IMG/VR virus record: IMGVR_UViG_3300014947_000001
DNA: 64,000 bases
Strand: one strand, 5' to 3'
Origin: a virus
This document shows, piece after piece, positions 5,017 to 64,000 of this stretch (the stretch's first letter is position 1; every line of letters starts with the position of its first letter). Position numbers and translations under genes: made by a program. The notes beneath the pieces are model-generated. The model was not told the DNA's origin and made no database searches. It saw only the letters and a program-made list of their open reading frames with translations.

Positions 5017-5137
5017 AAAGATGTAACAAACAGAGGAAACAGAAAAATTAAAACAATTTCAAGATTCTTAAAACCTGATTCCAATTTCAGTTGTCTAATA
5101 ATTGTAACAAGAAAAAAAGAAACATAAATGCGTGAAT

Positions 5138-5170
5138 ATCTGACGAGGTTTCCAAAAAGTGAGCCTTATT
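5138..5170 (+). promoter_or_regulatory. Family-1 motif
   Basis: atctgacgaggtttccaaaaagtgagccttatt; ~50 nt upstream of the 5220 start. Confidence 0.5.
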
Positions 5171-5219
5171 AGATATATAACGTAAACGAAAATGATTCAT
5201 TTACAGGAGGAAACGAAAA

Positions 5220-10259: not shown

Positions 10260-12062
10260 ATGAAATCATTGGCAAAGAAACTCAGTTTAATCTTTGTAGG
10301 CATCGTCTTAGTCACCTGTATCGTTCTTATCACGTTTGCAGGGTTAGCTTTTAATCGATTAGAGCGGACCTCAGAGGAAATTCTTTATGAGACAACATTG
10401 AATGGATATAAAACAGAGATCAAAAGTGAAGTCCAAGGAGCAGTATCCGTTGTTCGTGGGTTTTATGATTCCTACAGAAATGGAATCATAACAGAAGACA
10501 TCGCAAAGAGTGAAGCAAAAGAAGCGTTACGCAATATGCGGTACGGTGATGATAATTCCGGTTATTTTTGGATTGATGATACAAACTATAACCTCGTTAT
10601 GCATCCAATCCTTTCAGAACAGGAAGGAACGAACCGGAAAGATCTTGAGGACAAAAATGGAGTTAAGATCATTCAGGAAATCATGAAAGTTGCAGATAAT
10701 GGTGGATATAATGAGTTTTATTTCACAAAATCAGACGGCAAAACAGTAGCCCCAAAAGTAGCGTATTCTTTATCGTTTCCAGAATGGAACTGGGTGATCA
10801 CCACTGGCGTATATACAGATGACATTCAATCAATATTGTCTTCTTCCGCAGAGATAACGCGTACAAAAGCAATAAGCCGTAACAGTATCATATTTATGAT
10901 AGCGATTGGTGTTGTTCTTTATATATTAATGTTCTTCTTTTGTTTGTTTATCTGCAAAAAGCTCGTCTTGGTTATTAATCAGGTAAAGGAAAATTTAAAC
11001 AGTATCGCAGACGGTGACCTAACCGGACGGATTGACGGTAAGATCCTAAACAGAAAAGATGAACTCGGAAATATTGTAGTTCACACAAATAAAGCAGTCG
11101 AATCGTTCTGCAATAGCATTGCAACATCAAAACAGACTGCCATTACCGTGAACGAAAACAGTGCTGAAATATCCGGACTCGCAAACAGTGCTCTCGAAGC
11201 GACTGCTCAGGTTGCGGAAGCGATCAGTAATATAGCCGGAGATGCGACAACACAAGCAGGTGTCGTAAGTGATGTTGTGAAAAATATTGATACAATGAAC
11301 TGTAACGTCGAAGAAGTAAGTAATTCCGTTGACGACATCAGTCATTATGCGTGCGAATTAAATGAAGCCAGCGAAGACATGAAAGATAAAATGGATGCAA
11401 TGTCTAAAGGCAGCATGCAGATGTCAACACAGATTGAAAATATTTACAATCAGATTATGAAGACAACAGAGTCTATCAACAAAATGCAAGATGTATTAAA
11501 TGTTATCCAGGATATCGCTTCCCAGACAAACTTATTGAGTTTGAACGCAAGTATTGAAGCAGCAAGAGCCGGTGACAGCGGTCGTGGATTCTCTGTAGTA
11601 GCTTCTAATATTCGGGAATTATCAGAAAATACATCAAAAGAATTAAGTAATATTCGAGATATTATTGGAGAGCTCACTTCAAGTTTCGAAGAATGTAACG
11701 CTTCTATTGATACCGTCGTTGGTACAAATAAACAAAATGCTGAATACACAGGTCTGGTGATCAATTCATTTGATACTGTATTCGATGATATTAAGAATAC
11801 GAATGAAAATGTTTCTCATGTAACCACACTTACAAAACAGATTAGTGACATGATGAACCAGATCGCAGAGGGTATTGAAACCGTACAGCGAGGTGCTGAA
11901 AGTACAGCAGCTGCAACCGAAGAAGTTACGGCTTCCAGTGAAGAATTAAACGCTCTGATGCATAATATTACAGAAAACTGCAGGATCATGACAACCGAAG
12001 CCGAAAGTATGGTTGTGGATCTTAGTAAATTCAAGCTGGAAAAAGAAACAAAAACTGAATAA
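10260..12062 (+). CDS. methyl-accepting chemotaxis protein (Cache-like sensor, HAMP)
   Basis: Two transmembrane segments; Cache-like periplasmic domain; conserved signalling motif [32 protein letters not shown]. Confidence 0.9.
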
Positions 12063-21200: not shown

Positions 21201-21233
21201 TTCTGACGAGAAACCAATTTCCTGAGCCTTATT
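21201..21233 (+). promoter_or_regulatory. Family-1 motif
   Basis: ttctgacgagaaaccaatttcctgagccttatt. Confidence 0.5.
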
Positions 21234-23295: not shown

Positions 23296-24711
23296 ATGAA
23301 ATGGAAAACATTAATAGGTTTATTTCTTTTTGCGATAACATTGATAGTGATATCTTTTGATGATACCACTATTTTTGCTGACGATACAGTAAACCAACCT
23401 CTGTTTACCATTACAATTCCAAAACAGCTTACGATTGATGCTGACAAATGCGTAGAATACCAGGTTTGCGTACACAGGAATAGAACCAATGCTGGTACAG
23501 TAACCGTTATCCCGGATACGGAAGTAGTGTTATCAGACAGTAAAGGAAAAGCTGACGTTACCGGACAAGTGGCTCAAGATCAGACGCAATTTGAGTTTGC
23601 AGCAGACGGAGCCGATGAACAGGTAACAAATGGAACTGTCACCGCAAATGACTTAACGGCAGGAGACTGGACTGGCGCTTTCAATTTTAAAATCGATATG
23701 CAGGAAACGAAAATTGGTGACGATATAACATTAACCAGTGACAATCTTGCAGTTTATAACATATCAACATCCGGCGACGTCGTAATTCCTGAGTATGTAA
23801 CAGATACCGGCGGAGTCAAACATAAGGTTACTTCTATTAATGAATATACTTTTGGCGGCTGTTCTGAAGTAACATCCATAACGATTCCGAAAAGTGTGAC
23901 ATCCATAGGTAATTGTGTAGTTTCTGATTGCGATAAATTGGTTTCAATTATTGTGGATTCTGAAAATCCTGTATACGATAGCAGAAACAATAGCAACGCA
24001 ATCATTGAAACTGAGACAAACCGATTAATACAGGGATGTAACACTACGGTTATTCCAGAAACCGTTACAACAATTGGGCAGTATTCATTTAGTTATTGTA
24101 ATTTACTCGCTACCATTTCAATCCCAGATAGTGTGAAATCTATTGAGAAAAGGGCTTTTGATTCTTGCGAGAATTTAACCTCAATCACAATACCAGACGG
24201 TGTGACAAGTATTGACAGTGATGCATTTGCATGGTGTTCCAATTTAACATCAATTTGTATTCCGAATAGCGTTACCCATTTAGGTGGCTATTTGTTTTAT
24301 AATTGCACGTCACTGACATCAGTAACGCTTCCAGAAAATATAGAATCGATTCCTGGTGGAACATTTGATGGATGTCAAAGTTTAGCATCCATTACAATTC
24401 CGAATAGTGTAACATCGATTGGAAGTGATGCGTTTTACGGTTGTAAACAATTGACATCTATAGATATCCCAAATTCGGTTACAATATTAGGTTCCTTCTC
24501 TATTGCAAATTGTACCGGATTAACATCTACTTCTATTCCGGATAATATTACTTCTATTGGAGAACGAGCATTTGGAAGCTGCACGAATCTTTCATCAGTT
24601 ACTTATAAAGGAAATACGTATACAAACAAAACTAATATTGAAACGGTACTTGCGGAAAATAATGTTGCTCTCGAAAACGTAATATTCGACAATACAGCAT
24701 TATCTGAATAA
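23296..24711 (+). CDS. BspA-type leucine-rich-repeat surface protein
   Basis: Signal peptide; family N-terminal domain; ~12 LRRs of the form L(T/A)SI.IP.SVTSIG..AF..C; ends YKGNTYT. Confidence 0.75.
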   Translation: MKWKTLIGLFLFAITLIVISFDDTTIFADDTVNQPLFTITIPKQLTIDADKCVEYQVCVHRNRTNAGTVTVIPDTEVVLSDSKGKADVTGQVAQDQTQFEFAADGADEQVTNGTVTANDLTAGDWTGAFNFKIDMQETKIGDDITLTSDNLAVYNISTSGDVVIPEYVTDTGGVKHKVTSINEYTFGGCSEVTSITIPKSVTSIGNCVVSDCDKLVSIIVDSENPVYDSRNNSNAIIETETNRLIQGCNTTVIPETVTTIGQYSFSYCNLLATISIPDSVKSIEKRAFDSCENLTSITIPDGVTSIDSDAFAWCSNLTSICIPNSVTHLGGYLFYNCTSLTSVTLPENIESIPGGTFDGCQSLASITIPNSVTSIGSDAFYGCKQLTSIDIPNSVTILGSFSIANCTGLTSTSIPDNITSIGERAFGSCTNLSSVTYKGNTYTNKTNIETVLAENNVALENVIFDNTALSE

Positions 24712-24828: not shown

Positions 24829-26406
24829 ATGAAACGAAAAGCAGTGAGTTGTCTGCTTGTTCTGGCTGCGATCATGACGATGACGCCTACGATTCCAACA
24901 ATGGCAGCCGAAAACCCGGACAACACAACACAGGAAGCAACAACGACAGGAACTCAAGGAGCTACTATTACATATCAACAGGATTCCGCTTTTACCGTCA
25001 CCATTCCGAAGACGATCACATTAGGACAGAATAAGAGTGCAACCTATGGCGTCAAAGTAAAAGGTGACATTTCTGGGAATGAAACGGTTACCGTTACTCC
25101 TGATGCCACCATGCAGTTGACGGATTCGAATGGAAAGGCTGCGGTTACTGGAACAATTACTCAGGATGTTACAGAGTTTGCAGCCACAGAAGTGAATCTT
25201 CCAGATGGCAATAGTACAACTGGTAACATTGAAGCAAACGAACTTACGTCGGGAGACTGGTCAGGAAATTTTGAGTTTGCGATCGGTGTCAATAAAGAGT
25301 TAATCGCTGGACTTTATGACGCAGATGGAAAGATGGTTTGTACTTGGGAAGAGAGTGGAATCGATATCGAACAAGATTACACAGACTCATCTGGGAACAA
25401 TCCTTACACAACAACAACATCATCTGCTTATTATGTAATTACGAATAATTTTCCAACAGCTACATCTGTTGTTATCCCAGACGGTATCACCCACATTGGA
25501 AGTGAAAATTTTGATGGTTGTAAAAATATATCATCTATTGCGATTCCAGACAGCGTAACAAGTATTGGTAAATATGCATTCCAAGAAACAGGTATTACCA
25601 ATGTTGATATACCTGATAGTGTAACATCTTTTGGTGATGGTGTGTTTTGTAATTGCTCTAATCTTACAAATATTTCAATTCCAGAAGGTGTAACAAGTAT
25701 TGGATTTGGTGTATTTAAAGATTGCACTGGATTAACCTTAATTACAATACCAGACAGTGTAACAAGTATTGGAATTAGCACATTTAATAATTGTAACTCC
25801 TTAACATCCATTACGATACCAGATAGTGTAACAAGTATTGGAAATGCAGCTTTTTTTGGATGTGAAAAACTTGCAAATATCACAATCCCAGACAGTGTAA
25901 CAAGCATTGGACATCAAGCATTTAATGGTTGCAAAGGCTTAACATCCATTACAATACCAGATGTTGTAACAAGTATCGGGAGAGGCACATTTTGGGGATG
26001 TTCTAGCTTAAACTCAATCACAATACCAGACAGTGTGACAAGTATTAATAGTAATGCATTTAATGGTTGCAAAGGCTTAACATCCATTACAATACCAAAC
26101 GGTGTAACGAATATTGAAGGTGCCGCATTTAAAGGATGTTCAGCATTACCATCAATCACAATACCAGATGGCGTAACAAGCATTGGATATAGTGCATTTG
26201 AGGGTTGTAAAGGTTTAATATCTATTACAATACCAAACGGTGTAACGAATATTGGATATTATGCATTTAATAGTTGTTCAAACCTTGCATCTGTAACCTA
26301 TAAAGGACAGACCTACACAAGCATATCAGCACTAACAACAGCACTGAAAAATGATAAAGTAAAAATGGAATGGGATGTATTTAAAGGCACAGCCTTAACC
26401 AATTAA
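24829..26406 (+). CDS. BspA-type leucine-rich-repeat surface protein
   Basis: Signal peptide; N-terminal domain [17 protein letters not shown]; ~14 LRR units [11 protein letters not shown]; ends YKGQTYTS. Confidence 0.8.
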
Positions 26407-32816: not shown

Positions 32817-32972
32817 ATGGATGAACACAGAGAGGAAATCATTCATGAGGAACCATGCCGGGAGATGTTATGGTTTCAGGAGCTGGCACAACAAGACCAG
32901 AACGGATATACAGTAAACAAAACGAAAGTGAGAAAGATATTAGAGTACATATTACGGAGGATGAAAAATGAA
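32817..32972 (+). CDS. small protein (51 aa) translationally coupled to the sigma factor
   Basis: RBS gaaaggagggattgcATG; its stop overlaps the sigma start (ATGAATAG); absent from ORF track. Confidence 0.35.
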
Positions 32973-34929
32973 TAGCTACACCGAAGCAGTACAAAAAGCA
33001 ATGAAAGGAGACCAGGAAGCGTATACGTACCTGTATGAGAAAACGTATACGAAATGTTTTTACCTGGCGAGGAAGTTTTTAAACAGCGAGCACACAGCAC
33101 AGGATATCGTTCAGGATGCCTATGTGAAGGCTTTTAAGTCTCTGGATACCTTAGAAGACCCGGAGAAGTTTCAGTCATGGATCGGAACGATTGTGTCGAA
33201 CCTTGCCAAAAACGAACTGAAACGAAGAAAGGTAACCTTGTTCTCTGAAACAGAAAACGAAGACGGACAGGATATCAGTGATACCTTTGTGGATGACCGT
33301 GTGTCTGTTCAGCCGGAAGTCGTTATGGATCAGAATGAGACAACGAGACTGATGAAAGAGATCATTGATACTTTGACAGATGAACAGCGCATCTGTGTCA
33401 CAATGTTCTATATGGAACAGATGTCTGTAAAAGAAATGGCGTCCGTGCTTGAAGTATCAGAGAACACCGTTAAGAGCCGCCTGAATTATGGCAGACAAAA
33501 GATCAAAGACAAAGTATTAGACCTCGAAAAGAAAGGTACCAAGCTTTATGGTCTTGCTCCGATTCCATTCTTCCTGTTGCTGCTTAAAGAGGACGTCAAA
33601 GCGGCACAGGCAACACAGATTCCGTCAATGTCGGCTGCAGTGTCTTCAGCAACCAAAGCAGTTGCAACCGCAGCAGGAACCGGAAGTACCGTTGCCGGAA
33701 CAACCGCAGCCACAGTAGCAGCAGGCGCCGGAAAGGGAATCGCAACAAAGGTGATCGCAGGCATTGTCGCCGGAACGCTTGTTATCGGAGGTGGAGCAGC
33801 AGCGATTGTGCATATGCAGGGGCAGAGCGGAAATCATTATAAACTTGCAAAATCAATTTCAGATTTACCTGACTGGGCGTATGATAGTACAAATGGATTA
33901 AAATATATAAGCATTCAAGATTATAAATATCCAATTAGTTTAATTTTAGATTATGATAAGGATATGGTGGAGCGTGGCGAGGTTAAGTATTATTCCAATC
34001 CAGGTCATACAGGATATGAAGGAATGAAATGTGATCCAAAAGTTTGGTATTTTGGAGAATATAATGGACGTATCTATTATGTGGATAGAGCTAATACAGA
34101 GAATCTACGTTATCATTTATACCGTGTGCCAAAAGCTTCTGATTATGATTTATATTTAGAAGATTCAGATACTTATATGGCTTCTATATTTAATGATCTT
34201 AATGCAAGAAGTTCAGATAGTTTTTTATTTACATATGATGAAGATGAACATAATCAATATGTTGCGATTGAGGATATGATCAATTCTGACGGCTATAGTT
34301 TTGATGAATGGTACTGCATTACAGAAGATGACCTTATTCCGGATGCTGTAGATGCATACAATGATTGGGTTGCAAATGGGGAGGCAGAGATGAATGCCAT
34401 ATATGCATCCCATATCACTGTAACAGAATCAGTCCCGGAAACAGAAACAGAAACCGAAGAAGTAGTGGAAGAAGTAACTGAGGAACCGACAGAAACGGCT
34501 CCGGAAGAAACAGAAGTACAGGAAGCAGAAGGGGAGACCGTTGATCAGAGCGGAAATATTCCGGTTCCGAACTATACGCCAACTGGCAATTTCTGGAATA
34601 CACCTGGTTCTTACTCAAGCAATGATGGACAGACATTATCATTAAGCATGTTTACGGAAGACGGTGGAGTAGAAGGATGGTGCGGAAACATAAATGGCGG
34701 ATCAGTAGGTTCTCTGGAAGTCTTCAATTATGGTGATAAGATCTATTATCTGAAGAAAGCAGACAGTTCCTATTCGAATTTCACAGACAGCGGATATGCA
34801 TTTACTTTGGAACCGTCCGGAGAAACACTTGACATTTATGGGGAAACCTATGATATAATACTTTTGAAGTTGTACTATAATGGTGTACTTCAAGGAGAGT
34901 ACTATGAAACAGACCTCTATCAATCATAA
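32968..34929 (+). CDS. ECF-type sigma-70 family protein fused to a transmembrane segment and large C-terminal extracytoplasmic domain
   Basis: Region 2 (DIVQDAYVKAF..FQSWIGTIVSNL); region 4 (EQRICVTMFYMEQMSVKEMASVLEVSENTVKSRL); Ala/Gly/Thr-rich transmembrane segment ~aa 215-265; ~380-aa C-terminal domain. Confidence 0.75.
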   Translation: MNSYTEAVQKAMKGDQEAYTYLYEKTYTKCFYLARKFLNSEHTAQDIVQDAYVKAFKSLDTLEDPEKFQSWIGTIVSNLAKNELKRRKVTLFSETENEDGQDISDTFVDDRVSVQPEVVMDQNETTRLMKEIIDTLTDEQRICVTMFYMEQMSVKEMASVLEVSENTVKSRLNYGRQKIKDKVLDLEKKGTKLYGLAPIPFFLLLLKEDVKAAQATQIPSMSAAVSSATKAVATAAGTGSTVAGTTAATVAAGAGKGIATKVIAGIVAGTLVIGGGAAAIVHMQGQSGNHYKLAKSISDLPDWAYDSTNGLKYISIQDYKYPISLILDYDKDMVERGEVKYYSNPGHTGYEGMKCDPKVWYFGEYNGRIYYVDRANTENLRYHLYRVPKASDYDLYLEDSDTYMASIFNDLNARSSDSFLFTYDEDEHNQYVAIEDMINSDGYSFDEWYCITEDDLIPDAVDAYNDWVANGEAEMNAIYASHITVTESVPETETETEEVVEEVTEEPTETAPEETEVQEAEGETVDQSGNIPVPNYTPTGNFWNTPGSYSSNDGQTLSLSMFTEDGGVEGWCGNINGGSVGSLEVFNYGDKIYYLKKADSSYSNFTDSGYAFTLEPSGETLDIYGETYDIILLKLYYNGVLQGEYYETDLYQS

Positions 34930-40864: not shown

Positions 40865-41917
40865 TTAGTCTCCTTTGTTTTCTTCTGATTTGTTGGTATC
40901 TTCGTATTTGATGCCTCGGATCAGCTGTTTTCGTTCTTCTGACATCGTTGTGTAAAAATCTTTCGTCGTCTGAATGTTTTTGTGACCTAATGCGGTGGCA
41001 GTCAAATACAAATCTCCTGTTTGATTATAAAGTTTTGTTCCGAAAGTACGTCTTAAGGTATGAGGAGTTACATGCTCTCCAATGGTATCTCCATACGCTT
41101 TGATCATTCGTTCTACGGACCGTACTGATAACCGATCGCCAGTTGCATGTCTTGATGATAAAAATAATGCCCGGTTTGCGTCATCGTAAGGTTGTCTTTC
41201 AAAATCAATATAACGATCGATAGCTTTTCGAACCACATCATTTATAAGTACGTCCTCCTCTTTTCCTCCCTTTCTTGTTACGTGGATTGTCATTGTATTC
41301 CGATTAATGTCATCAATATTTAGATTACATAATTCAGAAACACGGATTCCAGTATACGCAAGTGTTGTTATGATTGCAATATTTCTATACTTTGTATTTT
41401 CAAGATAAAACAAAGATTCTGGTTTTCCAACACAAGCCTTCACATTATTCAACAATTCTACTGTTTCGTCACTTGTTAGTGGTCGTTTCTTTTCCAATTC
41501 CGCTTTTGGTCTATCTATTAATTTTGCAACATTCATAGAAAGTCCTTTGAATGTAACCAGATATTGGAAAAAAGCTCGCATACAGCTTAGCTTTTGTGCT
41601 CTTGCTTTTGCTTCATTATGTACTGTTTCATACTCAGTCATATGCAAACGTAAATAACTCATATATTTTTGCATATCAAGAGCATTGATTTGATTTAACA
41701 TATCTATTGTGATATCGCTATATTCAGAAATCAAAGAATTTCGGTCAATCAAAAATTGAAAGAAATTACGAATATTATATGCATATGAAATCATCGTATT
41801 GTAAGATCTGCCCAATGTTCCGTCACAATAATCAAAATAGTCTTTTACGTAGTCTGGAAGATCTACTTTTAACCTATTCAATTGTTGCAGTTTTTTGTAT
41901 TTTACATCTTCTTTCAT
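40865..41917 (-). CDS. int: tyrosine site-specific recombinase / integrase
   Basis: Catalytic motifs R..(ELCNL), HTLRRTF, LGHKNIQTTKDFY; start re-assigned to MKEDVKYKK. Confidence 0.9.
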   Translation of the reverse strand: MKEDVKYKKLQQLNRLKVDLPDYVKDYFDYCDGTLGRSYNTMISYAYNIRNFFQFLIDRNSLISEYSDITIDMLNQINALDMQKYMSYLRLHMTEYETVHNEAKARAQKLSCMRAFFQYLVTFKGLSMNVAKLIDRPKAELEKKRPLTSDETVELLNNVKACVGKPESLFYLENTKYRNIAIITTLAYTGIRVSELCNLNIDDINRNTMTIHVTRKGGKEEDVLINDVVRKAIDRYIDFERQPYDDANRALFLSSRHATGDRLSVRSVERMIKAYGDTIGEHVTPHTLRRTFGTKLYNQTGDLYLTATALGHKNIQTTKDFYTTMSEERKQLIRGIKYEDTNKSEENKGD

Positions 41918-41956
41918 AATGAATATTATAGAACGAATACGAAAAAATGGCAACAA

Positions 41957-41989
41957 ATCTGACGAGTTTTCCATACTTTGAGCCTTATC
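41957..41989 (+). promoter_or_regulatory. Family-1 motif
   Basis: atctgacgagttttccatactttgagccttatc; overlaps the integrase 5' region on the opposite strand. Confidence 0.45.
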
Positions 41990-42031
41990 ATATGTAAACA
42001 AATAATTCGAAAACAAAAGGAGATTTTTACA

Positions 42032-42313
42032 ATGAGAACAATCAAGGAAGATACGGTTAAAGAAGCAATCGATTTCTATGGTGCGAACATTCAGGCAACA
42101 ATCTGTATGGAAGAATGCGCAGAGCTTATCCAATGCATCAGCAAAGAGATTCGAGGCAAATCAAACATTGATCATCTTGCTGAGAAAATGGCAGATGTAT
42201 GTATCTGTATTGAGGCTTTAAAACAGATTTATGGTATTTCAGATGAGCAGATGCAGTTCTGGATTGATTTCAAACAGAAACGTATCGAGGATCGTATGTT
42301 GAAAGGAGAATAA
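42032..42313 (+). CDS. MazG-like nucleotide pyrophosphohydrolase
   Basis: RBS aaaggagatttttacaATG; EECAELIQ...EKMADV, typical of all-alpha NTP-PPases. Confidence 0.5.
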   Translation: MRTIKEDTVKEAIDFYGANIQATICMEECAELIQCISKEIRGKSNIDHLAEKMADVCICIEALKQIYGISDEQMQFWIDFKQKRIEDRMLKGE

Positions 42314-51270: not shown

Positions 51271-52044
51271 TTATGGCAGGTAGTCAATGGTTATATACTG
51301 AAGATTTCCATCAAGGAATTCGAACTTGTAACCATACTGACCATAATACTTAGTTGAATCCTTCTTGTATTCTACTGTGTCAGTTGTGTGGCTTTCACCT
51401 TCGTATGTTCTGTTGTCTGTTGGATCGCTTTCGTTTGCGAGCAATTCGTCTAAAGTCATATCAACAGGAAAAGCAAACGACATTACGTTCTGTGTTTCTC
51501 CAATATGCATTGGTAAGTATACTTCGCTGATGTAACACTCGGATGCTGTTTTGCCTGCATCTGAATCGTTGAATACATATACCTGTCCACTCCAATAGTC
51601 CCCTAATGTGATGCGGAATCCACTGGACTTGCTGTTTTTATTCAAATTATTCGATGCATTTGCAATATCATCCTCATTAAACGGAACTCCGTCATCGATC
51701 AGTTCCTGTAATGTAGTCTGACCTAATGTATATGTTTTTCCGTTGATCGCAAACTGCATGTTATCAAAATCGACATAGCTGCCACCGATTGTTGCGGTTT
51801 CTGCTGATTTTGTATCAGCAGTTTCTGTTGATTCATCGACCGCTTCTGTTTCTGTTTCGATCACTATCTCGGTTGCCTCTACCTCATCCGGCTGTTCTGT
51901 TTCAACTTCTGTTTCTGTTTCAGCGGATGCTTCTGTTGCAACCGTGGTCTTTGTGTCTTTTGTTGAAGCTGATGTACCGCATCCGGTAGCTAACATACCG
52001 AGACACATACTGGCTAACAACAATGTTACTGCTTTCTTTTTCAT
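51271..52044 (-). CDS. lipoprotein
   Basis: MKKKAVTLLLASMCLGMLATGC lipobox; Thr/Glu-rich linker. Confidence 0.65.
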   Translation of the reverse strand: MKKKAVTLLLASMCLGMLATGCGTSASTKDTKTTVATEASAETETEVETEQPDEVEATEIVIETETEAVDESTETADTKSAETATIGGSYVDFDNMQFAINGKTYTLGQTTLQELIDDGVPFNEDDIANASNNLNKNSKSSGFRITLGDYWSGQVYVFNDSDAGKTASECYISEVYLPMHIGETQNVMSFAFPVDMTLDELLANESDPTDNRTYEGESHTTDTVEYKKDSTKYYGQYGYKFEFLDGNLQYITIDYLP

Positions 52045-52556
52045 CTTAATACCTTTAACAAGCCATGTGCGGAGACCCGCGCCTTCAGTCGTGGGAGGAG
52101 CACTCATGGCTATGTCGTTCCCTTTCTTTGTTCTGTCAAATTGTTACTCAAACACACTCCGAAGCTTAGCATTATAGAACATTAGCAGTTCTATAATCTT
52201 GGCTTACTAACTGATCTGCACGCCAGTAGGTGGCAGGTTTCAGTACAGGAGGACATCACGAGAGTTTATCTCGAGTGAACTGTACTCCGAAGGAGTGGTA
52301 TCACTTAAGGTTTGAAATACCAGGACATCTGGATCTTCTCTGAAGTTTCCCAGTGTTTTTTTTTATGGTATTCAAAGCTGTCTGATGTGGTCTTGAAATA
52401 CAGACTCAATCCCTCAATAAATTGAGCGATGTAGTCTCTCCGTTGCAGAAACGTTCAAGACATCCCTACATGGTAGGTTTCACAGGACTCTTCGTCCTGC
52501 AGTCTTACGGTCTCAGTTGGAACCGCAAAGAGTTATTTCTAAACTCTTTAATACCA

Positions 52557-53438: not shown

Positions 53439-53546
53439 AATGGGCTTAACCTAGAAGCCATGATGCTTGAACTACTAACGTTTAAGTGTATTACAGCTTC
53501 GTTTCCAAAAACAAAGACAGGTTATTACTCCTGCCTCTGTTTCATT

Positions 53547-54227
53547 TTAAAATCGACCTAATCTGACCGATACATCACAAATACTATCTTCGAGCTTTTC
53601 TTTAATTCGCTTTGCGCATTCCTCTTTGTCTGTATCAGATATTTTTGTTGGATCAGGATATTCTTTGTTTAATTCCCTGCAAACGTACTCTGCTTTTTGT
53701 CCGAGTTTGTATCCTTTTTCTTTGTATCGTTTGTAATCAGGAGCAATATCAATTGAATTTGAATCAAATACGGTCCAGGTATTATAACCTTTGATTAACA
53801 AAGCAACACAGAAAACAAATACAAGAATGATCGTCACGTTGATGTTAATGAACAACATCGGCGATAAAAACAGGGTGATTATTGGAATTAAGATCCAGGA
53901 AGTAATGATTCTGAATTTTTCCTGTTTATTCAAATATTGTAATAAATCCTCTGTCATTCTTGTACAACAATGTTCGAATCGATTTTTGTCTTGATCACAA
54001 TAAATGAAAATATTATACTGCTTGAAATCGTTAGGGACTGAAACAAATCTTTTAGCTACCAGTTTCGGCAAGAAATATTCGATTGCGATCGCTGCTACAA
54101 TAATCATAACGGGACCGACACATAATCCGAGTAACTTTAAGATCAATCTAAGGGTCTCGAAATACCCCATGCCGTCTGCGTGTTGCAACTGGTTAATAAT
54201 TTTTACAAGTTCGTCTGTTTGAAACAT
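53547..54227 (-). CDS. MFxTEEL-family membrane protein, paralog 1 of 4
   Basis: N-terminus MFQTDELVKIINQLQHA; three to four transmembrane segments. Confidence 0.6.
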   Translation of the reverse strand: MFQTDELVKIINQLQHADGMGYFETLRLILKLLGLCVGPVMIIVAAIAIEYFLPKLVAKRFVSVPNDFKQYNIFIYCDQDKNRFEHCCTRMTEDLLQYLNKQEKFRIITSWILIPIITLFLSPMLFININVTIILVFVFCVALLIKGYNTWTVFDSNSIDIAPDYKRYKEKGYKLGQKAEYVCRELNKEYPDPTKISDTDKEECAKRIKEKLEDSICDVSVRLGRF

Positions 54228-54267
54228 AATACTTTTCTCCTTTTCTTTTGATGGTTTATTTGTTACG

Positions 54268-54280
54268 TCTTAAATATGTG
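54268..54280 (-). promoter_or_regulatory. Family-2 motif (minus strand)
   Basis: Plus-strand cttaaatatgtgc = gcacatatttaag on the minus strand, ~40 nt upstream of the 54227 start. Confidence 0.4.
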
Positions 54281-54458
54281 CCCGATATTAATGGAGAAAC
54301 CGGTGTTCTATATGATAAGTTGGGCACAAAAATACCGGATGCTAACACACTCATACGGAAACAAAATATCAGGGAACAAAAAGTATTGCTAAACTGATTA
54401 ATCGATTTACTTTCTTTTTGTTCCCATAAATATTCGTTTCCGATAATTCTATCGTTTA

Positions 54459-55157
54459 TCAGTGATCACATAGATGAATCACACAGATGACAGCTTTGCA
54501 ATACCGATCATTTACGGCTGCATTTATAATTTGTTCTATCTCATATTTATCCATATGCTTCAATTTCTTTGTATCTATAGTTTTAAATGCTTCCTGGATT
54601 TTCTCACAAAACTGATTTCTGATTTCTGTTTTGTTTACAGAGTTTTCCTTTGCTATATCGCTCCAATCATAGCAACCAAAACTGTCGTTACAGAAAAACA
54701 ATGTAAGTACAAGTCCTACGATTATACAAAATGTAAATATACCAAAAAGAACTTTTGTATGGTCATTAAAAAGAAATGGACTTAATAACAATAATACAAT
54801 TACAGAGAAGCCACAGGTTATTTTATAACGCAAGAATCCCCGTTTACAAAGTAGTTTTTCATAATCACGACTTTCTTCCCAATCAGACGGCTTCAAAAAA
54901 TCTTTGTCTTTCTTTCGTTTAAGAACGAAGTGATAATCGTATAACTTCATTGTGTCTGACACTGGCGTTAATTTGTATGAAATCCATTTTGGTCCCAATA
55001 CTAAAATCACTATTAAACTGATAACAAACAGTGTGGGACCTGCACATAGTCCAATTAATTTAAAAATCAGCAGTAGTGTATCGAAATACCCGAGTCCGCT
55101 TCCTTGTGCATGCTGCAATTGATCAATTATTTGTTGTAATTCTTCTGTATGAAACAT
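54459..55157 (-). CDS. MFxTEEL-family membrane protein, paralog 2
   Basis: MFHTEELQQIIDQLQHA; transmembrane segments. Confidence 0.6.
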   Translation of the reverse strand: MFHTEELQQIIDQLQHAQGSGLGYFDTLLLIFKLIGLCAGPTLFVISLIVILVLGPKWISYKLTPVSDTMKLYDYHFVLKRKKDKDFLKPSDWEESRDYEKLLCKRGFLRYKITCGFSVIVLLLLSPFLFNDHTKVLFGIFTFCIIVGLVLTLFFCNDSFGCYDWSDIAKENSVNKTEIRNQFCEKIQEAFKTIDTKKLKHMDKYEIEQIINAAVNDRYCKAVICVIHLCDH

Positions 55158-55196
55158 ATATAATCTCCTTTCGTTTCCTCTGACTTAACTATTCAT

Positions 55197-55230
55197 AATA
55201 AGGCTCAAAATACCGAAAACTCGTCAGGAA
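55197..55230 (-). promoter_or_regulatory. Family-1 motif (minus strand)
   Basis: Plus-strand aataaggctcaaaataccgaaaactcgtcaggaa. Confidence 0.5.
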
Positions 55231-55320
55231 ACAAAATATCAGGGAACAAAAAGTTGGTAAATTAATTAATTAATTGGTTTACTTTCTTTTTGTTCCCATG
55301 AATATCCGTTTCCGAAACAG

Positions 55321-56016
55321 TCACTCTCTGCTAATAAGGATCTTATAATAAGGATCGTTTACCCTTATGCCTAAAATTCGAGCGATTTCCTTTTTACTCA
55401 TATCTTTCAACTGATTTGCATCAATCTCTTCAAAAGCTTTTATCACTTTTTCAGCAAACTGATCTTTTGTCTCTGATAATTTATCTTCCTTTGCGATATC
55501 TTCCCAGCCCTTGAGTTCTGATTCATAATCATAAACTACATATACATATAGAAGAACACTACCCATAACGATCATAAATGCATAAGCAGGAAACCTCATT
55601 ATTTCACTAAAAAAGAAAGGACTTATCAGTAGTGATACAATTACTGAAAAAACGCATGTTATCTTATAACGCAGGAAACCTCGTTTACAAAGTAACTTTA
55701 GGTAATCGCTGGTATATTTAATTGTGTTGAACTGTAGAGGTGAATCTCTCTGCAAACGATATTTCCCATTTTTACACTTAAGAATAAAATAGCAATTATA
55801 CCGTTTCATGTTATCCGGAGTTGGTGTTAATTTGTATGAAATCCATTTTGGAATCCATATTAAAATTAATATCAAACAAATAACAAACAGGATTGGTTTT
55901 GCACATAATGCAATCAGTTTCAGGATTAAAAGCAGTGTGTCAAAATAACCGATTCCGTCTACTTGTGCATGTTGTAACTGATCAATGATTTTTTGCAATT
56001 CTTCGGTGTGAAACAT
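55321..56016 (-). CDS. MFxTEEL-family membrane protein, paralog 3
   Basis: MFHTEELQKIIDQLQHA. Confidence 0.6.
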   Translation of the reverse strand: MFHTEELQKIIDQLQHAQVDGIGYFDTLLLILKLIALCAKPILFVICLILILIWIPKWISYKLTPTPDNMKRYNCYFILKCKNGKYRLQRDSPLQFNTIKYTSDYLKLLCKRGFLRYKITCVFSVIVSLLISPFFFSEIMRFPAYAFMIVMGSVLLYVYVVYDYESELKGWEDIAKEDKLSETKDQFAEKVIKAFEEIDANQLKDMSKKEIARILGIRVNDPYYKILISRE

Positions 56017-56055
56017 AGATAATCTCCTTTCATTTCCTCTGATTTAACTATTCAT

Positions 56056-56089
56056 AATAAGGCTCAAAATACTGAAAACTCGTCAGGAA
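56056..56089 (-). promoter_or_regulatory. Family-1 motif (minus strand)
   Basis: Plus-strand aataaggctcaaaatactgaaaactcgtcaggaa. Confidence 0.5.
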
Positions 56090-56190
56090 ACAATAAATTA
56101 GGGAGCAAAAAGTCGGTAAACTAATTAATTGGTTTACTCAACTCTTGCTCCCTAAACATCTGTTTCCGAAATAATCAGTAACTGAATTCG

Positions 56191-56919
56191 TTAGATTTCA
56201 GGAAACGGAAAACGAATAGAACAACAGTCAGATACTATATGCTCATCCATATATTTTTCAAACTCAATTGGTGTCATTTCTACTTTATCCTTTTTCAGTG
56301 AGAATACCTCTTTGTACAGTTGTTCTTTGATATTGGATTCAATCTCATTGATACTTGATAGTTTTTGAATATTTCCATATATTGCCCAATGGTTTTCGTG
56401 GCAGAGTGATCGAAAATTAATATCATCAATTTCAGTTGTTAGGTAATAACCATCTTTAGTCTTATTTCCTACAATCCAATATAAAAAGATACAGACAACT
56501 GTAATGTAGGTTAACATAGTACCGAAGCTTACGAATAAAAATGGACTTAACAAAAAACACGCAATTAAGGATAAAACGGTTGTTATCTGATATCTTAGAT
56601 GTCCGCGTTTTTCAAGGATTGCTTTATATTTCTTCGTAAACCTTATTCCTTCAAAATGAAGATCATTTAGATTTTTATATCCCCAGCTGCACAAAAAATA
56701 ATATGGCTTCATGTCTTTTTCTAGCGGTATCAGAATTTGCGGTAAATATTTTGGAACAAAATACAATACTGCAAAGACTGCAAACACAAATAAAATCGGT
56801 CCCGCACACAGTCCGATTAATTTCGTAATCAACAGCAAGGTATCAAAATAACCAAGACTGGCTCCATGAGAACTCTGTAATTGATCAATGACTTGTTTTA
56901 ATTCTTCTGTATGAAACAT
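56191..56919 (-). CDS. MFxTEEL-family membrane protein, paralog 4
   Basis: MFHTEELKQVIDQLQSS. Confidence 0.6.
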   Translation of the reverse strand: MFHTEELKQVIDQLQSSHGASLGYFDTLLLITKLIGLCAGPILFVFAVFAVLYFVPKYLPQILIPLEKDMKPYYFLCSWGYKNLNDLHFEGIRFTKKYKAILEKRGHLRYQITTVLSLIACFLLSPFLFVSFGTMLTYITVVCIFLYWIVGNKTKDGYYLTTEIDDINFRSLCHENHWAIYGNIQKLSSINEIESNIKEQLYKEVFSLKKDKVEMTPIEFEKYMDEHIVSDCCSIRFPFPEI

Positions 56920-56951
56920 ATATGTATTCTCCCTTCGTTTTTACTTGTTAA

Positions 56952-56985
56952 CAATAAGGCTCAATATATCGAAAACTCGTCAGAA
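56952..56985 (-). promoter_or_regulatory. Family-1 motif (minus strand)
   Basis: Plus-strand caataaggctcaatatatcgaaaactcgtcagaaaa. Confidence 0.5.
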
Positions 56986-57092
56986 AAATACAAGAAAAAG
57001 GAATGGAAATGTATTCCGTTTCAGATGTTTTTCTTGTCTTCATCATAATCATAATCCTCTCCCTTATATCCTTTTCCTGCTTTTCGATCTTC

Positions 57093-57776
57093 TTATTTTT
57101 CTACTGTCAGAACTAACTGAACCGTACCAATCTCATCTGAATCACTAACATGTACCGTAAGATTATAGGTTTTTGTGTTCGAATCATTACAGAGATCATA
57201 TGCTGGCCACGATGTTTGGAATCCAACATCATAGATTGATTCTACAATACATTCGTCTCCTTCTGTTACTGTAAAGCTTAATGACCTTGTAATATCTCGG
57301 TATTCGTATTCTTTTGCCAGATCGCTAAAATCAATATACTTATGGTCTTTGTTTACAGTTGCAATCCACTTTTTGGGCAACCCATTCTCTTGCATTCCCT
57401 CAAAGCTGCTATATTCGGATACTACATTGGAATGCGATTCGATGGTTGCTGTTTGTTCTGCTTGCGTAATATCCGTATCTGAATTATCGTGATATAATAA
57501 TGAAAAACTAGTAACGAGTATAGCACAAACAACAACAACAACGACTAGTGCATAAGCTTCAACAATTATGAATGTGTTCGGCTTGTATTTCTTACTTTTC
57601 TTAGAATTGTCTGCTACTTTTGTTGACTTTGTCCCGTTTTTCTGTTTCATAAGCTGTTTCATGTAATCATAATGATATGCGCTGTCTTCCGAATCTTTAG
57701 AATCCGACGTCTTTTTCGACTCTGTTTTTGGTTTGTCTTCTGCCTGTTTCGGTTCCTTAAATTTGTATAATACCAT
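57093..57776 (-). CDS. single-pass membrane protein downstream of the SPFH gene
   Basis: RBS taaggagatccATATG; Lys/Ser/Asp-rich N-terminus, transmembrane segment, beta-rich C-terminal domain. Confidence 0.5.
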   Translation of the reverse strand: MVLYKFKEPKQAEDKPKTESKKTSDSKDSEDSAYHYDYMKQLMKQKNGTKSTKVADNSKKSKKYKPNTFIIVEAYALVVVVVVCAILVTSFSLLYHDNSDTDITQAEQTATIESHSNVVSEYSSFEGMQENGLPKKWIATVNKDHKYIDFSDLAKEYEYRDITRSLSFTVTEGDECIVESIYDVGFQTSWPAYDLCNDSNTKTYNLTVHVSDSDEIGTVQLVLTVEK

Positions 57777-57839
57777 ATGGATCTCCTTATAGAAAACAAA
57801 GGCTGCTACACAACGCAACAGCCTCTGTATTGATTTTGT

Positions 57840-58796
57840 TTACTGGCTTAACTGGAACAATGTATTGATCTTGTCGCTTAGCATTGTCTCTGGCAGTTTT
57901 CCATCCCAGCCTTTGACATAGTAATACTGAACGAGTTCTGGATGCGCATTTAACTGATCTCCGACTGCTGACATGATTGCAGCATCTTTCTTTCCCTGAT
58001 ACTCAGCAGAATCAGCCTGGATCTGAGCGACCTCTGCGTCTGCTTTTGCGGCTACGATTGCAGAGTCAGCTTCTGCCTGTGCTGCCGTTACTTTACGTTT
58101 TGCTTCTGCTTCTGCTTCCAGGTTTAATCTTTCCTGCTCTGTCTTTGCTGTTAATTTGTTCTGGACTGCTGTTACTTTCGCTTCTGCTGCGCTTGTGAAT
58201 TCGTCACTGAAATCGATATTTTCGATTGCGGTTGCAGTTAATCTAATGTTATAACTTGCAAGATCATCAATCAAATCGGTTTGAATTAAAGCAGCAACCT
58301 TATTACGGTCTTCAATCAATTCATTTGCAGTGTATTTTGCAAATCCGGCTTTCACTGCTTCCTGTACACGTGGAACAATAACTGTGTCATAGTAGTTAGA
58401 ACCGATTGTACGATAAATATCCTGTGCATTCTGCTGGCTAATCTGATAGTTGACGGTGTATGTAAGTGTTACTTCCTGAATATCTTTTGAGAAGCAGGTC
58501 ATATCTACTTGTGCTTTTTGTACACGGTTATCCATTTTTACAACCTTTTGCCAAGGCTCTACAAAAGCTATACCTGCATCTAATGTCTGCGATTCGACTC
58601 GTCCGAATGTAGTTAAAATTCCGGTATATCCAGTCGGTACGGTTCGGACACATCCGAAACCACAGAGTATAAGTCCGAATACAGCAAGAAACTGTCTCTT
58701 TCTAAAATGCATCTCTACTGCATCGTCTGTAAACTCAATACCCAAAACGAAGAATAATACTATAGTTGCAATAATGCCTAGAACGAATAAAAACAT
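57840..58796 (-). CDS. SPFH/band-7 (stomatin/prohibitin/HflKC-like) membrane protein
   Basis: N-terminal transmembrane segment; SPFH core; Ala/Glu-rich coiled-coil (EAEAEAKRKVTAAQAEADSAIVAAKADAEVAQ). Confidence 0.85.
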   Translation of the reverse strand: MFLFVLGIIATIVLFFVLGIEFTDDAVEMHFRKRQFLAVFGLILCGFGCVRTVPTGYTGILTTFGRVESQTLDAGIAFVEPWQKVVKMDNRVQKAQVDMTCFSKDIQEVTLTYTVNYQISQQNAQDIYRTIGSNYYDTVIVPRVQEAVKAGFAKYTANELIEDRNKVAALIQTDLIDDLASYNIRLTATAIENIDFSDEFTSAAEAKVTAVQNKLTAKTEQERLNLEAEAEAKRKVTAAQAEADSAIVAAKADAEVAQIQADSAEYQGKKDAAIMSAVGDQLNAHPELVQYYYVKGWDGKLPETMLSDKINTLFQLSQ

Positions 58797-58842: not shown

Positions 58843-58876
58843 GATAAGGCTCACTTTTTGAAAACCTCGTCAGGAA
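58843..58876 (-). promoter_or_regulatory. Family-1 motif (minus strand)
   Basis: Plus-strand gataaggctcactttttgaaaacctcgtcaggaa. Confidence 0.5.
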
Positions 58877-59509: not shown

Positions 59510-60043
59510 TCAAGATGTCTTATCGAATTGATAGCAATCGTATTCTATAATACATCCGATCTCATTGGTTTTGCATAGAATTGAAAGTCCACGTTCATAA
59601 CGTGCATCGCATCCATCTCTGTGTACGCAATGCCTGCAGTTAATAAGACATGCTTCCAGAAATTCGTCCGGAAATGTTTCGAGATCCTTCCATTCAGACT
59701 TCGACGCATATTGTTTTACTAATTTGTAACCTTTTGCGAGTTCACAATGTACGATATCCTGGTTCATCTTCGGAGTAACACAATACAGATTTCCTTCTCC
59801 GTCATCCCAGATTGACATCTTTTTGAAATGATACTTGAAGAACCGATGAATTTTGTTTACAAGGAAGCAAATGATACTTAGAACCCAACCAACCGGACCG
59901 ACAGCAAGAAGTCCTGTAACTGTGTCATTATCAAAAGCGATGTACAAAATAGTGGATACCAATGAACACAGTAGCCAAATAATAAGAACAAGTTTTATAG
60001 ATACCATAATATAATCTCCTTTTCTCTTATGACTTATTATCAT
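59510..60043 (-). CDS. membrane protein with Cys-rich C-terminal domain
   Basis: N-terminal transmembrane segments; CRHCVHRDGC...C. Confidence 0.45.
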   Translation of the reverse strand: MIISHKRKGDYIMVSIKLVLIIWLLCSLVSTILYIAFDNDTVTGLLAVGPVGWVLSIICFLVNKIHRFFKYHFKKMSIWDDGEGNLYCVTPKMNQDIVHCELAKGYKLVKQYASKSEWKDLETFPDEFLEACLINCRHCVHRDGCDARYERGLSILCKTNEIGCIIEYDCYQFDKTS

Positions 60044-60067: not shown

Positions 60068-60463
60068 TTAATTATCAGAAACATTCACATGCAATTTACT
60101 TTCATCCAGATACAAAAATCCCCATTCGTATCGTATTGTTTCAATATGTGTTGGTTTCTCGTTATCGACGACAGTTGGTAACCCACGTGTTGAAAACGAT
60201 TCTCCGGACTCATAATCAATATGTGTTATCTCGGATGTTATCGGTTTTCGAAAGGTTGTAAACAAAACAGCGATAACTGATAGAGAAATCAAAGATCCGA
60301 TACTCCAAAGACCGACCAAAACGGTTAACATTTTTGTTAGTTTTTGTTTTAATGACAAATCATCATGTTTACTATTCATTTTTCGAACTAAATAACTGAT
60401 TCTCGGAATAAACAAAATGAATATTACAGCTAAAACGAGAACCATAAATGCGATTACGTTCAT
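60068..60463 (-). CDS. single-pass membrane protein, tandem paralog
   Basis: ...THIETIRYEWGFLYLDESKLHVNVSDN; paralog of 60570-61004. Confidence 0.5.
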   Translation of the reverse strand: MNVIAFMVLVLAVIFILFIPRISYLVRKMNSKHDDLSLKQKLTKMLTVLVGLWSIGSLISLSVIAVLFTTFRKPITSEITHIDYESGESFSTRGLPTVVDNEKPTHIETIRYEWGFLYLDESKLHVNVSDN

Positions 60464-60489: not shown

Positions 60490-60571
60490 CGGAACCGCTC
60501 TTTCGGAACCTATTGACTTAGAAACTATTATGTTTCCTAAAACAATCGGTTCTAAAATATTCGGTTCCGCT
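60490..60571. repeat. compound palindromic GGTTCCG/CGGAACC element (copy B)
   Basis: tcggaaccg-N6-cggaacc ...36 nt... cggttct-N7-tcggttccgc; same architecture as 29925-30004. Confidence 0.55.
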
Positions 60572-61004
60572 ACTGTTGGTCCAACATTTCATCAGAAAGA
60601 TTTACGTGCAGTAATGTTTCCTTTTCATACAAAAAGCCCCACTTGTACGTAATCGTCTCAAAATGTGTTGAATTTTCTTCGTCTACGATTGCTGTCACGT
60701 TTTTCGGGATCTCTTCTCCGGACTCATATGATACCGGAATTGTCTCTACTGATACGGGCTGCCGGAATCTAGGGTATAATCCCATAAGAAAAATACTTGG
60801 ACATAATGCCAAGACTACATATACAGCAATTAAGGTTTCTGTTTTAAGTCCGGGAGCTACATTGAGCCCTGGTTCTACCGTGTCTCCATTAGAATCCATT
60901 GCTTCGATTGCTGCTATATCATCAACTGTCGATTTATGGATAATCGGAATGAAGATTACGGACACAGTTATTATCATGATCAACACAAATAACATAATAT
61001 GCAT
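60570..61004 (-). CDS. single-pass membrane protein, tandem paralog
   Basis: ...THFETITYKWGFLYEKETLLHVNLSDE. Confidence 0.5.
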   Translation of the reverse strand: MHIMLFVLIMIITVSVIFIPIIHKSTVDDIAAIEAMDSNGDTVEPGLNVAPGLKTETLIAVYVVLALCPSIFLMGLYPRFRQPVSVETIPVSYESGEEIPKNVTAIVDEENSTHFETITYKWGFLYEKETLLHVNLSDEMLDQQ

Positions 61005-61048: not shown

Positions 61049-61082
61049 ACAAGGCTCATGAACTCGTAAACTCGTCAGGAAA
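61049..61082 (-). promoter_or_regulatory. Family-1 motif (minus strand)
   Basis: Plus-strand acaaggctcatgaactcgtaaactcgtcaggaa. Confidence 0.45.
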
Positions 61083-63550: not shown

Positions 63551-64000
63551 CATAATACTTCCGTATAGCCCAAAGTTTTCAAATATTCGGAAACCGCAGA
63601 CAGAGATTCCTTTATTTTGCTGATTTGATCTGGAATACACGATTTTGTTGCGACTTCCAGATTCTTCCTTTGTTCTGTAAATTTATTGTTGATCTCTATT
63701 TCGCGTTTTATTCAATTCAGATCTTGCATCAGATCTTTTTTATGAAACACCACTTGAACACTCCCCAGAGCTAAAACTCAGGGGATCCTATTGTCTGATT
63801 TAATTGAGACAACGTACTCGTCTGTACATACGGTCTCTGCTTAGCCGGTATTTCCTTTCGGAAGATACTTACCACACAGAGACTAAGTCACAGATGAGAT
63901 GAATCTGCAGATCACGATACCATGTCTAAAGCATTGATCTTTAACAGGGTATTGTAAGTGCATTGTGTTCTCTTCTGACATTCCGGAACTTTTGCCGTAA

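Follow-up and report, generated by a model that had tools for sequence, protein, structure and literature searches.

Dispensable membrane-protein cassettes of phages and paralog arrays in large viruses are familiar. Superinfection-exclusion proteins, such as T4 Imm and Sp, lactococcal Sie2009 and the Ltp-type lipoproteins, are small, dispensable membrane proteins encoded by phages. Phage 'moron' cassettes are unrelated insertions with a host-type promoter and a terminator of their own, and their presence varies among close relatives. Class I holins of the lambda S105 type are proteins of 70-150 amino acids (aa) with three transmembrane (TM) segments, an external N-terminus nearly without positive charge and a charged, internal C-terminal tail. 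Tandem multigene families are found in jumbo phages, in African swine fever virus (ASFV MGF) and at the genome ends of poxviruses, and SPFH genes of bacteria usually share a transcript with genes for small membrane partners, as in HflK/C with FtsH and in the SPFH-NfeD operons. Large gut phages are rich in unannotated genes. The locus described here lies in the viral IMG/VR record IMGVR_UViG_3300014947_000001, of which a stretch of 64,000 nucleotides (nt), called the window in the following, was analysed. It contains four tandem paralogs, p1-p4, beside an SPFH gene, and what is new in it is the protein family itself.

Six consecutive open reading frames (ORFs) occupy positions 53547-58796 on the minus strand, all of them at the coordinates given in an earlier sequence-only reading of this DNA:

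53547-54227, minus strand: paralog p1, 226 aa, the most divergent copy
54459-55157, minus strand: paralog p2, 232 aa, the copy modelled with AlphaFold2
55321-56016, minus strand: paralog p3, 231 aa
56191-56919, minus strand: paralog p4, 242 aa, predicted three-pass membrane protein
57093-57776, minus strand: m227, a single-pass membrane protein of 227 aa, in the ORF listing with a TTG start (57093-57818)
57840-58796, minus strand: SPFH/Band-7 (prohibitin-family) membrane scaffold protein, 318 aa, Pfam PF01145

The analysis shows that autonomous cassettes, each predicted to consist of promoter, ribosome-binding site (RBS), ORF and hairpin, form a tandem array of variable copy number at this locus, within a block of envelope-protein genes. 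Alignment of p1-p4 confirmed that these genes of ~230 aa have a conserved N-terminus in common (consensus MF.T.EL..I.QLQ...GYF.TL.LI.KL..LC..P), with 36 invariant columns that mostly fall within the first ~55 residues. The remainder has diverged, as the sequence-only reading had also described: identity among the four copies is 0.64 in residues 1-23 and 0.57 in TM1, and decreases to 0.28 in the loop, 0.26 in TM2-3 and 0.15 at the C-terminus. Over their whole length p2-p4 are 27-33% identical to p1, and p2 and p3 are 53% identical to each other. All four copies are intact in the window and each has an RBS.

The paralogs represent a new, previously undescribed and lineage-restricted family of membrane proteins. 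Among 5.8 billion proteins, a profile built from the four copies retrieved no more than 31 clusters (90% identity), each of metagenomic origin. An exhaustive hidden Markov model search through 1.84 billion proteins, representatives of clusters at 50% identity, yielded 40 family members; the family was found on IMG/VR viral contigs. No member was present in 185,579 species-representative bacterial and archaeal (GTDB) genomes, and a tblastn search with p2 found none in cultured phages or plasmids. When 25 diverse members were scanned singly, neither Pfam nor PHROGs gave a consistent match; likewise, the NCBIfam scan of p2, the search of PDB sequences with the family profile and a fold comparison remained without a match. 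The family had not been recognised in the sequence-only reading either, and this assessment holds. A comparison with PADLOC-DB v2, which had been proposed as a check for a defence family, gave no credible match: the best was PDC-M48A at an E value of 8e-4 for p1 only, none was obtained for p2-p4, and an additional weak match of p1 to the 2TM effector model (E 0.045) falls, like the former, in TM regions. SUR7, SAM_3, SocA_Panacea and PDC-M48A were rejected as identities, since they were sub-threshold matches of one or two members each and are regarded as noise. PHROGs annotated as superinfection exclusion were not matched by any paralog; the lone such match (E 0.055) concerned the signal-peptide region of a neighbouring lipoprotein. 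Homology to a housekeeping transporter family and conserved occurrence in non-mobile chromosomal contexts had been named as observations that would refute the sequence-only reading. Neither was found: Pfam, NCBIfam and PDB revealed no transporter homology of the family, and its members are confined to mobile, phage-like surroundings.

Across the whole family only Y24 of the GYF motif and P127 of the SPF motif are invariant. The AlphaFold2 model of p2 (predicted local distance difference test, pLDDT, 82.7) comprises a helix at residues 2-17, a 40-residue helix at 24-63 that forms TM1 plus an extension, a beta-hairpin at 73-95, helices at 97-124 (TM2) and 132-157 (TM3) with the SPF turn between them, and a small helical C-terminal domain with a final strand at 220-227. 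Each paralog is accordingly predicted to possess an acidic N-terminal helix, a long TM1, a basic loop of ~55 aa containing the beta-hairpin, a TM2-TM3 hairpin with the invariant SPF turn, and a charged helical C-terminal domain of ~70 aa, in which ~36% of the residues are charged. Over 25 members, lysine and arginine together average 11.0 residues in loop 1 and 11.6 in the C-terminal domain, against 0.8 in the N-tail and 0.2 in the TM2-TM3 turn. By the positive-inside rule, this distribution predicts an N-out/C-in topology. In this orientation the conserved elements, namely the N-terminal helix, the GYF motif and the SPF turn, would face outwards, and the beta-hairpin and the C-terminal domain, both variable, would be cytoplasmic.

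The paralogs are ancient and under purifying selection. Within the conserved first 60 codons, the synonymous divergence (dS) between paralogs already reaches 1.4-2.7 or is saturated and not computable. The N-terminal conservation therefore reflects selection at the protein level, and the duplications are old; gene conversion as the source of the N-terminal coding conservation was rejected, given paralog dS values of at least 1.4 or saturated in codons 1-60. Between orthologues, the ratio of non-synonymous to synonymous divergence (dN/dS) of the array genes is 0.3-0.65, as compared to 0.05-0.12 for the AAA, SPFH and dUTPase genes, which characterizes them as constrained yet fast-evolving accessory genes. 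A constant N-terminal part of ~55 residues followed by a variable remainder is the pattern in every subgroup. In p2 orthologues the C-terminal domain evolves fastest, with 72-75% identity versus 98% in the first 110 residues and a dN/dS of ~0.5. No case of positive selection was proven, all whole-gene dN/dS values being below 1; the 8 non-synonymous versus 1 synonymous change in the C-terminus of p4 are suggestive, but these counts are far too small. The description of the genes as rapidly diversifying in the sequence-only reading thus applies to copy number and to the C-terminal domain, both of which vary quickly, but not to the paralogs as such, which are old and constrained.

Two promoter-like motifs recur in the window. 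The Family-1 motif is bipartite, CTGACGAG-N12-TGAGCCTTAT, and occurs at 17 sites, where 0 are expected; every site is on the coding strand, with a start codon 35-45 nt downstream of it. The Family-2 element, CATATTTA, has 34 sites in the window versus 4.95 expected and usually carries a TTTCTTTGT-like box ~13 nt upstream. Host-type sigma-70 promoters are not enriched in the window (27 found, 34 expected). At the array the following elements were detected:

58844-58873, minus strand: Family-1 motif of the SPFH gene (motif scan)
57796-57828, minus strand: terminator-like hairpin between the SPFH gene and m227 (dG -21.6, z -5.1)
56954-56983, minus strand: Family-1 motif of p4 (motif scan)
56098-56155, minus strand: hairpin after p4 (dG -33.8, z -5.5)
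56057-56086, minus strand: Family-1 motif of p3 (motif scan)
55242-55297, minus strand: hairpin after p3 (z -3.4)
55198-55227, minus strand: Family-1 motif of p2 (motif scan)
54372-54425, minus strand: hairpin after p2 (z -4.0)
54346-54363, minus strand: decayed Family-1 remnant TTTCCGTATGAGTGTG in the p2-p1 spacer (spacer alignment)
54260-54278, minus strand: Family-2 element CACATATTTAAGACGTAACAA, 43 nt before the ATG of p1 (motif scan)
53508-53543, minus strand: hairpin after p1, followed by a T-run (z -4.2)

Family-1 motifs thus precede the SPFH gene, p4, p3 and p2, and a stable hairpin is located 3' of each paralog (z -3.4 to -5.5). The hairpins after p4, p3 and p2 exhibit compensatory stem substitutions in the spacer alignment. 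The spacers upstream of p3 and p2 are nearly identical (96% in one 60-nt alignment window), a likeness that could stem from conversion or from selection on the promoter and the untranslated region. No Family-1 motif precedes p1: the p2-p1 spacer holds the common hairpin, a decayed motif remnant (TTTCCGTATGAG...) and then an extra segment with the Family-2 element, which is also found before the p1 orthologue of a related locus, L021 (related loci are denoted by L and family proteins by P, each with a number). To judge from the remnant and from the Family-2 element in the extra segment, p1 has changed its promoter class. The motif scan confirmed that each of p1-p4 and the SPFH gene has a Family-1 or Family-2 motif of its own, as had been reported; m227 has neither. 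The view that the paralogs do not form one co-transcribed unit is likewise upheld, as they are predicted to be separately promoted, hairpin-terminated cassettes.

Further Family-1 sites of the window include 980-1009, 5140-5169, 21203-21232, 41959-41988 and 61049-61078, and the motif is also kept in distant relatives, including the region upstream of cas9. Family-2 sites include 10214, 16333, 39265, 43007 and 62960. The Family-2 element stands upstream of the genes for a Dda-like helicase, an SSB, an AAA+/ClpX-like protein and a chemoreceptor, and therefore probably marks a temporal class other than that of Family-1. The window also encodes, at 32968-34929 on the plus strand, a 653-aa protein with an N-terminal sigma factor region of the extracytoplasmic function (ECF) type (Sigma70_r2 and r4_2, TIGR02937) and ~470 more residues; this protein is a candidate for the factor that recognises one of the two motif classes.

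A promoter motif and a hairpin are predicted for each copy, and the array varies between conserved genes, the SPFH gene and m227 on one side and the dUTPase gene on the other. Both features resemble moron cassettes. However, the array promoters belong to the two recurrent motif classes that are common to dozens of genes of the phage, and the units are tandem paralogs instead of unrelated insertions. The cassettes are therefore considered part of the phage's own programme and not host-promoter morons.

The variation of the array was assessed in 17 related gut-metagenome loci with a complete interval from the SPFH to the dUTPase gene. The order SPFH, m227, array, dUTPase is the same in 17/17 loci; the array comprises one copy in two loci, and two, three or four copies in five loci each. 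Presence and absence of copies differ even among phages with flanks that are 87-90% identical. The interval was shown to be remodelled by recombination in the conserved 5' ends, by insertion and by pseudogenisation. The single copy of L007 and L008 (P0005) is a chimera of residues 1-46 of p4 and the body of p2, the product of a deletion through recombination inside the conserved 5' region. The array of L009 contains p4, an inserted gene, a C-terminal remnant of p3, and p2. The inserted 444-aa gene (L009:8139-9473, Pfam PF27142) takes the place of the 5' two-thirds of p3, and its 3' end is 96% identical to positions 63753-64000 at the extreme right end of the window; thus, a gene from ~8 kb away was copied into the array. 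A further insertion follows the first array copy of L091, and the family variants P0022, P0026 and P0028 are frameshifted. In L021, an 85% identical orthologue of p1 is flanked by SPFH and dUTPase genes of 89 and 90% identity, and a fifth subtype is also present there. A distant subtype in L082 likewise forms a tandem pair (49% identity). Other distant members, located beside Cas9 in L001-L006 and in L013-15, L098 and L103, occur singly and lack an SPFH gene within 10 kb. Tandem, anciently diverged paralogs, copy-number variation between strains and a very large genome are also features of jumbo-phage arrays, ASFV MGF and the poxvirus terminal families; this is an analogy only, as the virus realm differs and homology is absent.

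The SPFH gene at 57840-58796 is well supported by Pfam PF01145 (E 7e-29, 101.5 bits versus a cut-off of 23.6) and phrog_200 (E 4e-53), and its product is 43% identical to prohibitin-family proteins of Faecalibacterium phages. Scores of the NCBIfam HflK and HflC equivalog models were far below their cut-offs, and the protein is therefore a generic SPFH protein, neither HflK nor HflC. The sequence-only reading had placed a membrane protein and an SPFH gene directly upstream of the array. Both are present, but the start of the former needs revision: the listed TTG lies inside the terminator-like hairpin at 57796-57828 and homologues have 227-242 aa, so that the gene most likely starts at ATG 57776, behind the RBS AAGGAG, and encodes 227 aa. 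The m227 protein is predicted to have a lysine-rich N-terminal tail, one TM segment and a C-terminal immunoglobulin (Ig)-like beta-sandwich domain. It is lineage-restricted, and its TM region is the most variable part among close relatives. The L021 homologue (L021:7300-7983) is only 37% identical, in spite of flanking SPFH and dUTPase genes of 89-90% identity, which may result from allelic replacement or from strong diversification. An NCBIfam scan of m227 gave no match. Its identification as an NfeD protein was rejected because NfeD Pfam models did not match and the predicted fold is an Ig-like beta-sandwich rather than an oligonucleotide-binding (OB) fold.

As in the SPFH operons of bacteria, the array has membrane-protein genes downstream of an SPFH gene. 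In L021 the sole Family-1 motif stands before the SPFH gene; the m227 homologue follows after a gap of 65 nt and the first family member after another 18 nt, and the second family copy keeps only a Family-2 element. This arrangement of a single promoter motif and short gaps suggests an ancestral operon in which at least the first family gene was joined to the SPFH gene and m227, with later copies in the lineage of the window having gained promoter-terminator cassettes of their own. Unlike in the bacterial operons, the partner is not an NfeD protein, and bacteria have nothing that corresponds to the three-pass family. Phages frequently carry SPFH genes (130 records); the neighbourhood of the SPFH gene in Faecalibacterium phage Toutatis contains no comparable membrane partner. 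A literature search on the function of phage SPFH proteins and on the present phage group found nothing relevant.

Taken together, these data are tentatively read to mean that the paralogs modify the envelope in a way that is dispensable but matters in competition, of the kind seen in superinfection exclusion or membrane protection, and possibly together with the SPFH scaffold; we regard this reading as a serious possibility, albeit somewhat short of probable. The paralogs would be made within the transcription programme of the phage in two promoter and temporal classes, p2-p4 with the SPFH protein and p1 apart, and would insert into the host membrane. The conserved N-terminal/TM module would serve a common task in assembly, possibly with the SPFH scaffold and m227, and the variable cytoplasmic module would provide differing specificities, so that different phage strains would keep different paralog repertoires. 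With superinfection-exclusion proteins the paralogs share that they are phage-encoded, dispensable, small membrane proteins, and their block holds other envelope proteins including a lipoprotein; the paralogs differ in that they lack sequence and fold similarity to these proteins, are larger and three-pass, and have a variable part that is predicted to be cytoplasmic.

Several observations weigh against this reading. No homology points to any specific function, and the superinfection-exclusion and defence models of PADLOC and PHROGs were unmatched by the paralogs. The variable domain, cytoplasmic if the N-out/C-in prediction is right, would then be unexpected for a block of incoming phages at the cell surface and would mildly favour an intracellular target. 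Since distant members lack an SPFH gene within 10 kb and other phage SPFH genes lack the family, a partnership with SPFH is not obligatory. Furthermore, the window contains no capsid or terminase gene, and the element is therefore called a phage on the indirect evidence of its IMG/VR membership, of phage-like genes and of tRNA clusters.

The paralogs could alternatively be clients or regulators of the SPFH scaffold, which would stabilise or compartmentalise the host membrane in a long infection and act in counter-defence or homeostasis, not in exclusion; protection against membrane-disrupting abortive-infection effectors or against premature lysis would be examples. The synteny of SPFH gene, m227 and array in 17 loci, the single-promoter operon form of L021, the promoter class shared by p2-p4 and the SPFH gene, and a variable cytoplasmic domain that suits the binding of intracellular targets are consistent with this role, as is the habit of bacterial SPFH genes to be co-transcribed with small membrane partners. 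Nevertheless, it appears rather unlikely in view of the distant members without a nearby SPFH gene, the other phage SPFH genes without such a partner, the dissimilarity of m227 to NfeD and the hairpin that separates the SPFH gene from the downstream genes in the window.

A more far-reaching and, in our estimation, unlikely proposal is that the SPFH protein, m227 and the array constitute a modular phage membrane machine, in which the outer-face/TM module docks in an SPFH microdomain and interchangeable cytoplasmic domains recruit or neutralise factors of the host or of rival phages. If true, megaphages would possess a new class of exclusion or counter-defence system that is scaffolded by SPFH, draws on a repertoire and is based on a fold with no known relative.

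The three predicted TM segments, the N-out/C-in orientation predicted from hydropathy and the lysine and arginine distribution, the N-tail nearly without positive charge and the highly charged C-terminal domain would be consistent with the layout of class I holins, and holin- or antiholin-like proteins of lysis timing were considered. This role is very unlikely: with 226-242 aa, the paralogs are twice as long as the class I holins described so far, and their predicted cytoplasmic loop of 55 aa is structured. None of the 25 members matched a holin family in Pfam or PHROGs, and no endolysin was found among the adjacent genes scanned, the neighbours being genes for dUTPase, a lipoprotein, the SPFH protein and membrane proteins. 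One to four divergent, individually dispensable copies are also unlike lysis cassettes.

With its tandem, divergent paralogs, whose N-terminus is conserved and whose C-terminus varies, the locus resembles polymorphic systems, in which membrane immunity proteins or pore-forming effectors would form a toxin-immunity or abortive-infection array. The weak PADLOC matches of p1 to PDC-M48A and the 2TM effector are in line with such a set, but they come from one paralog only and fall in TM regions; no toxin, sensor or nuclease partner was evident among the block genes scanned and the promoters are the general motifs of the phage, which renders an array of this kind highly improbable. Finally, functionally decaying duplicates, left as junk of unequal recombination between repeated promoter/terminator cassettes, would account for the copy-number variation, the chimeras, the C-terminal remnant and the frameshifted P0022, P0026 and P0028, but this is scarcely credible and largely refuted by the selection analysis, given four intact window copies with RBS, dN/dS below 1, an N-terminus conserved despite saturated dS, a p1 lineage kept in L021 at 85% identity, near the divergence of SPFH (89%) and dUTPase (90%), and the confident AlphaFold2 model of p2.

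The 51-61 kb region of the window is an island of envelope-protein genes, comprising a lipoprotein gene, the array, m227, the SPFH gene and further small membrane proteins. The lipoprotein gene (51271-52107, lipobox LATGC) neighbours the array. On the other side of the array, 59510-60007 encodes a cysteine-rich protein of 165 aa with two TM segments. The genes at 60068-60463 and 60570-61004 (minus strand) are a paralogous pair for proteins of 131 and 144 aa with one TM segment each and a common C-terminal motif, E.I.Y.WGFLY...LHVN.SD; only the upstream gene has a Family-1-like motif (61049-61078).

We conclude that the element is a very large, uncultivated, phage-like element of the human gut. 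A megablast comparison of 12 kb of the window with cultured phages gave no match. Contigs from the human gut, up to 379-386 kb long, and viral contigs of IMG/VR encode identical or near-identical proteins, and the phage is present in more than 100 samples. The window encodes a Dda-like helicase, an SSB, a dUTPase, a ClpX-like AAA+ protein, a tyrosine recombinase (40865-42133, minus strand), a TnpB and the ECF sigma factor. The TnpB/IS605 OrfB-type gene (1643-2773, plus strand) has its closest relatives, with 64-70% identity, in Lachnospiraceae genomes. Based on these relatives and on the closest SPFH proteins in Faecalibacterium phages, the host probably belongs to the Clostridia/Lachnospiraceae. 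The TnpB gene and the recombinase are hints to the host range and to a possibly integrated or plasmid-like state of the element. An unusual auxiliary gene (10260-12062, plus strand) encodes a full-length methyl-accepting chemotaxis protein with sCache_2 and MCPsignal domains (Pfam E 1e-40 and 9e-33), and two adjacent genes (23296-24711 and 24829-26406, plus strand) encode BspA-type leucine-rich-repeat proteins (LRR_5, E 1e-66 and 1e-100), possibly surface or adhesion proteins or virion decoration.

The relatives L001-L006 carry a type II CRISPR-Cas locus (L001:5085-9181). In L001 an array of 5 repeats of 36 nt with a period of 66 nt (5085-5389) is located directly upstream of the gene for a Cas9 of 1166 aa with HNH_4, RuvC_III and Cas9_RuvC Pfam matches; a Family-1 motif at 5603 stands just before cas9, and the distant family member P0029 is encoded ~800 nt downstream of it. 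A cluster of tRNA-like direct repeats with a spacing of 78 nt in gene-poor surroundings (L001:13040-13250) fits a large phage genome.

The locus is well delimited and experimentally tractable, with a confident predicted structure that has no known relatives, a natural copy number of one to four and a clean split between a strongly constrained N-terminal module and a freely varying remainder. The two promoter motifs and the ECF-type sigma gene offer a starting point for studying how transcription is organised in this phage group. If the paralogs mediate exclusion or membrane protection, this would explain the presence of SPFH genes in phages and add a membrane-based module to the means by which phages compete.

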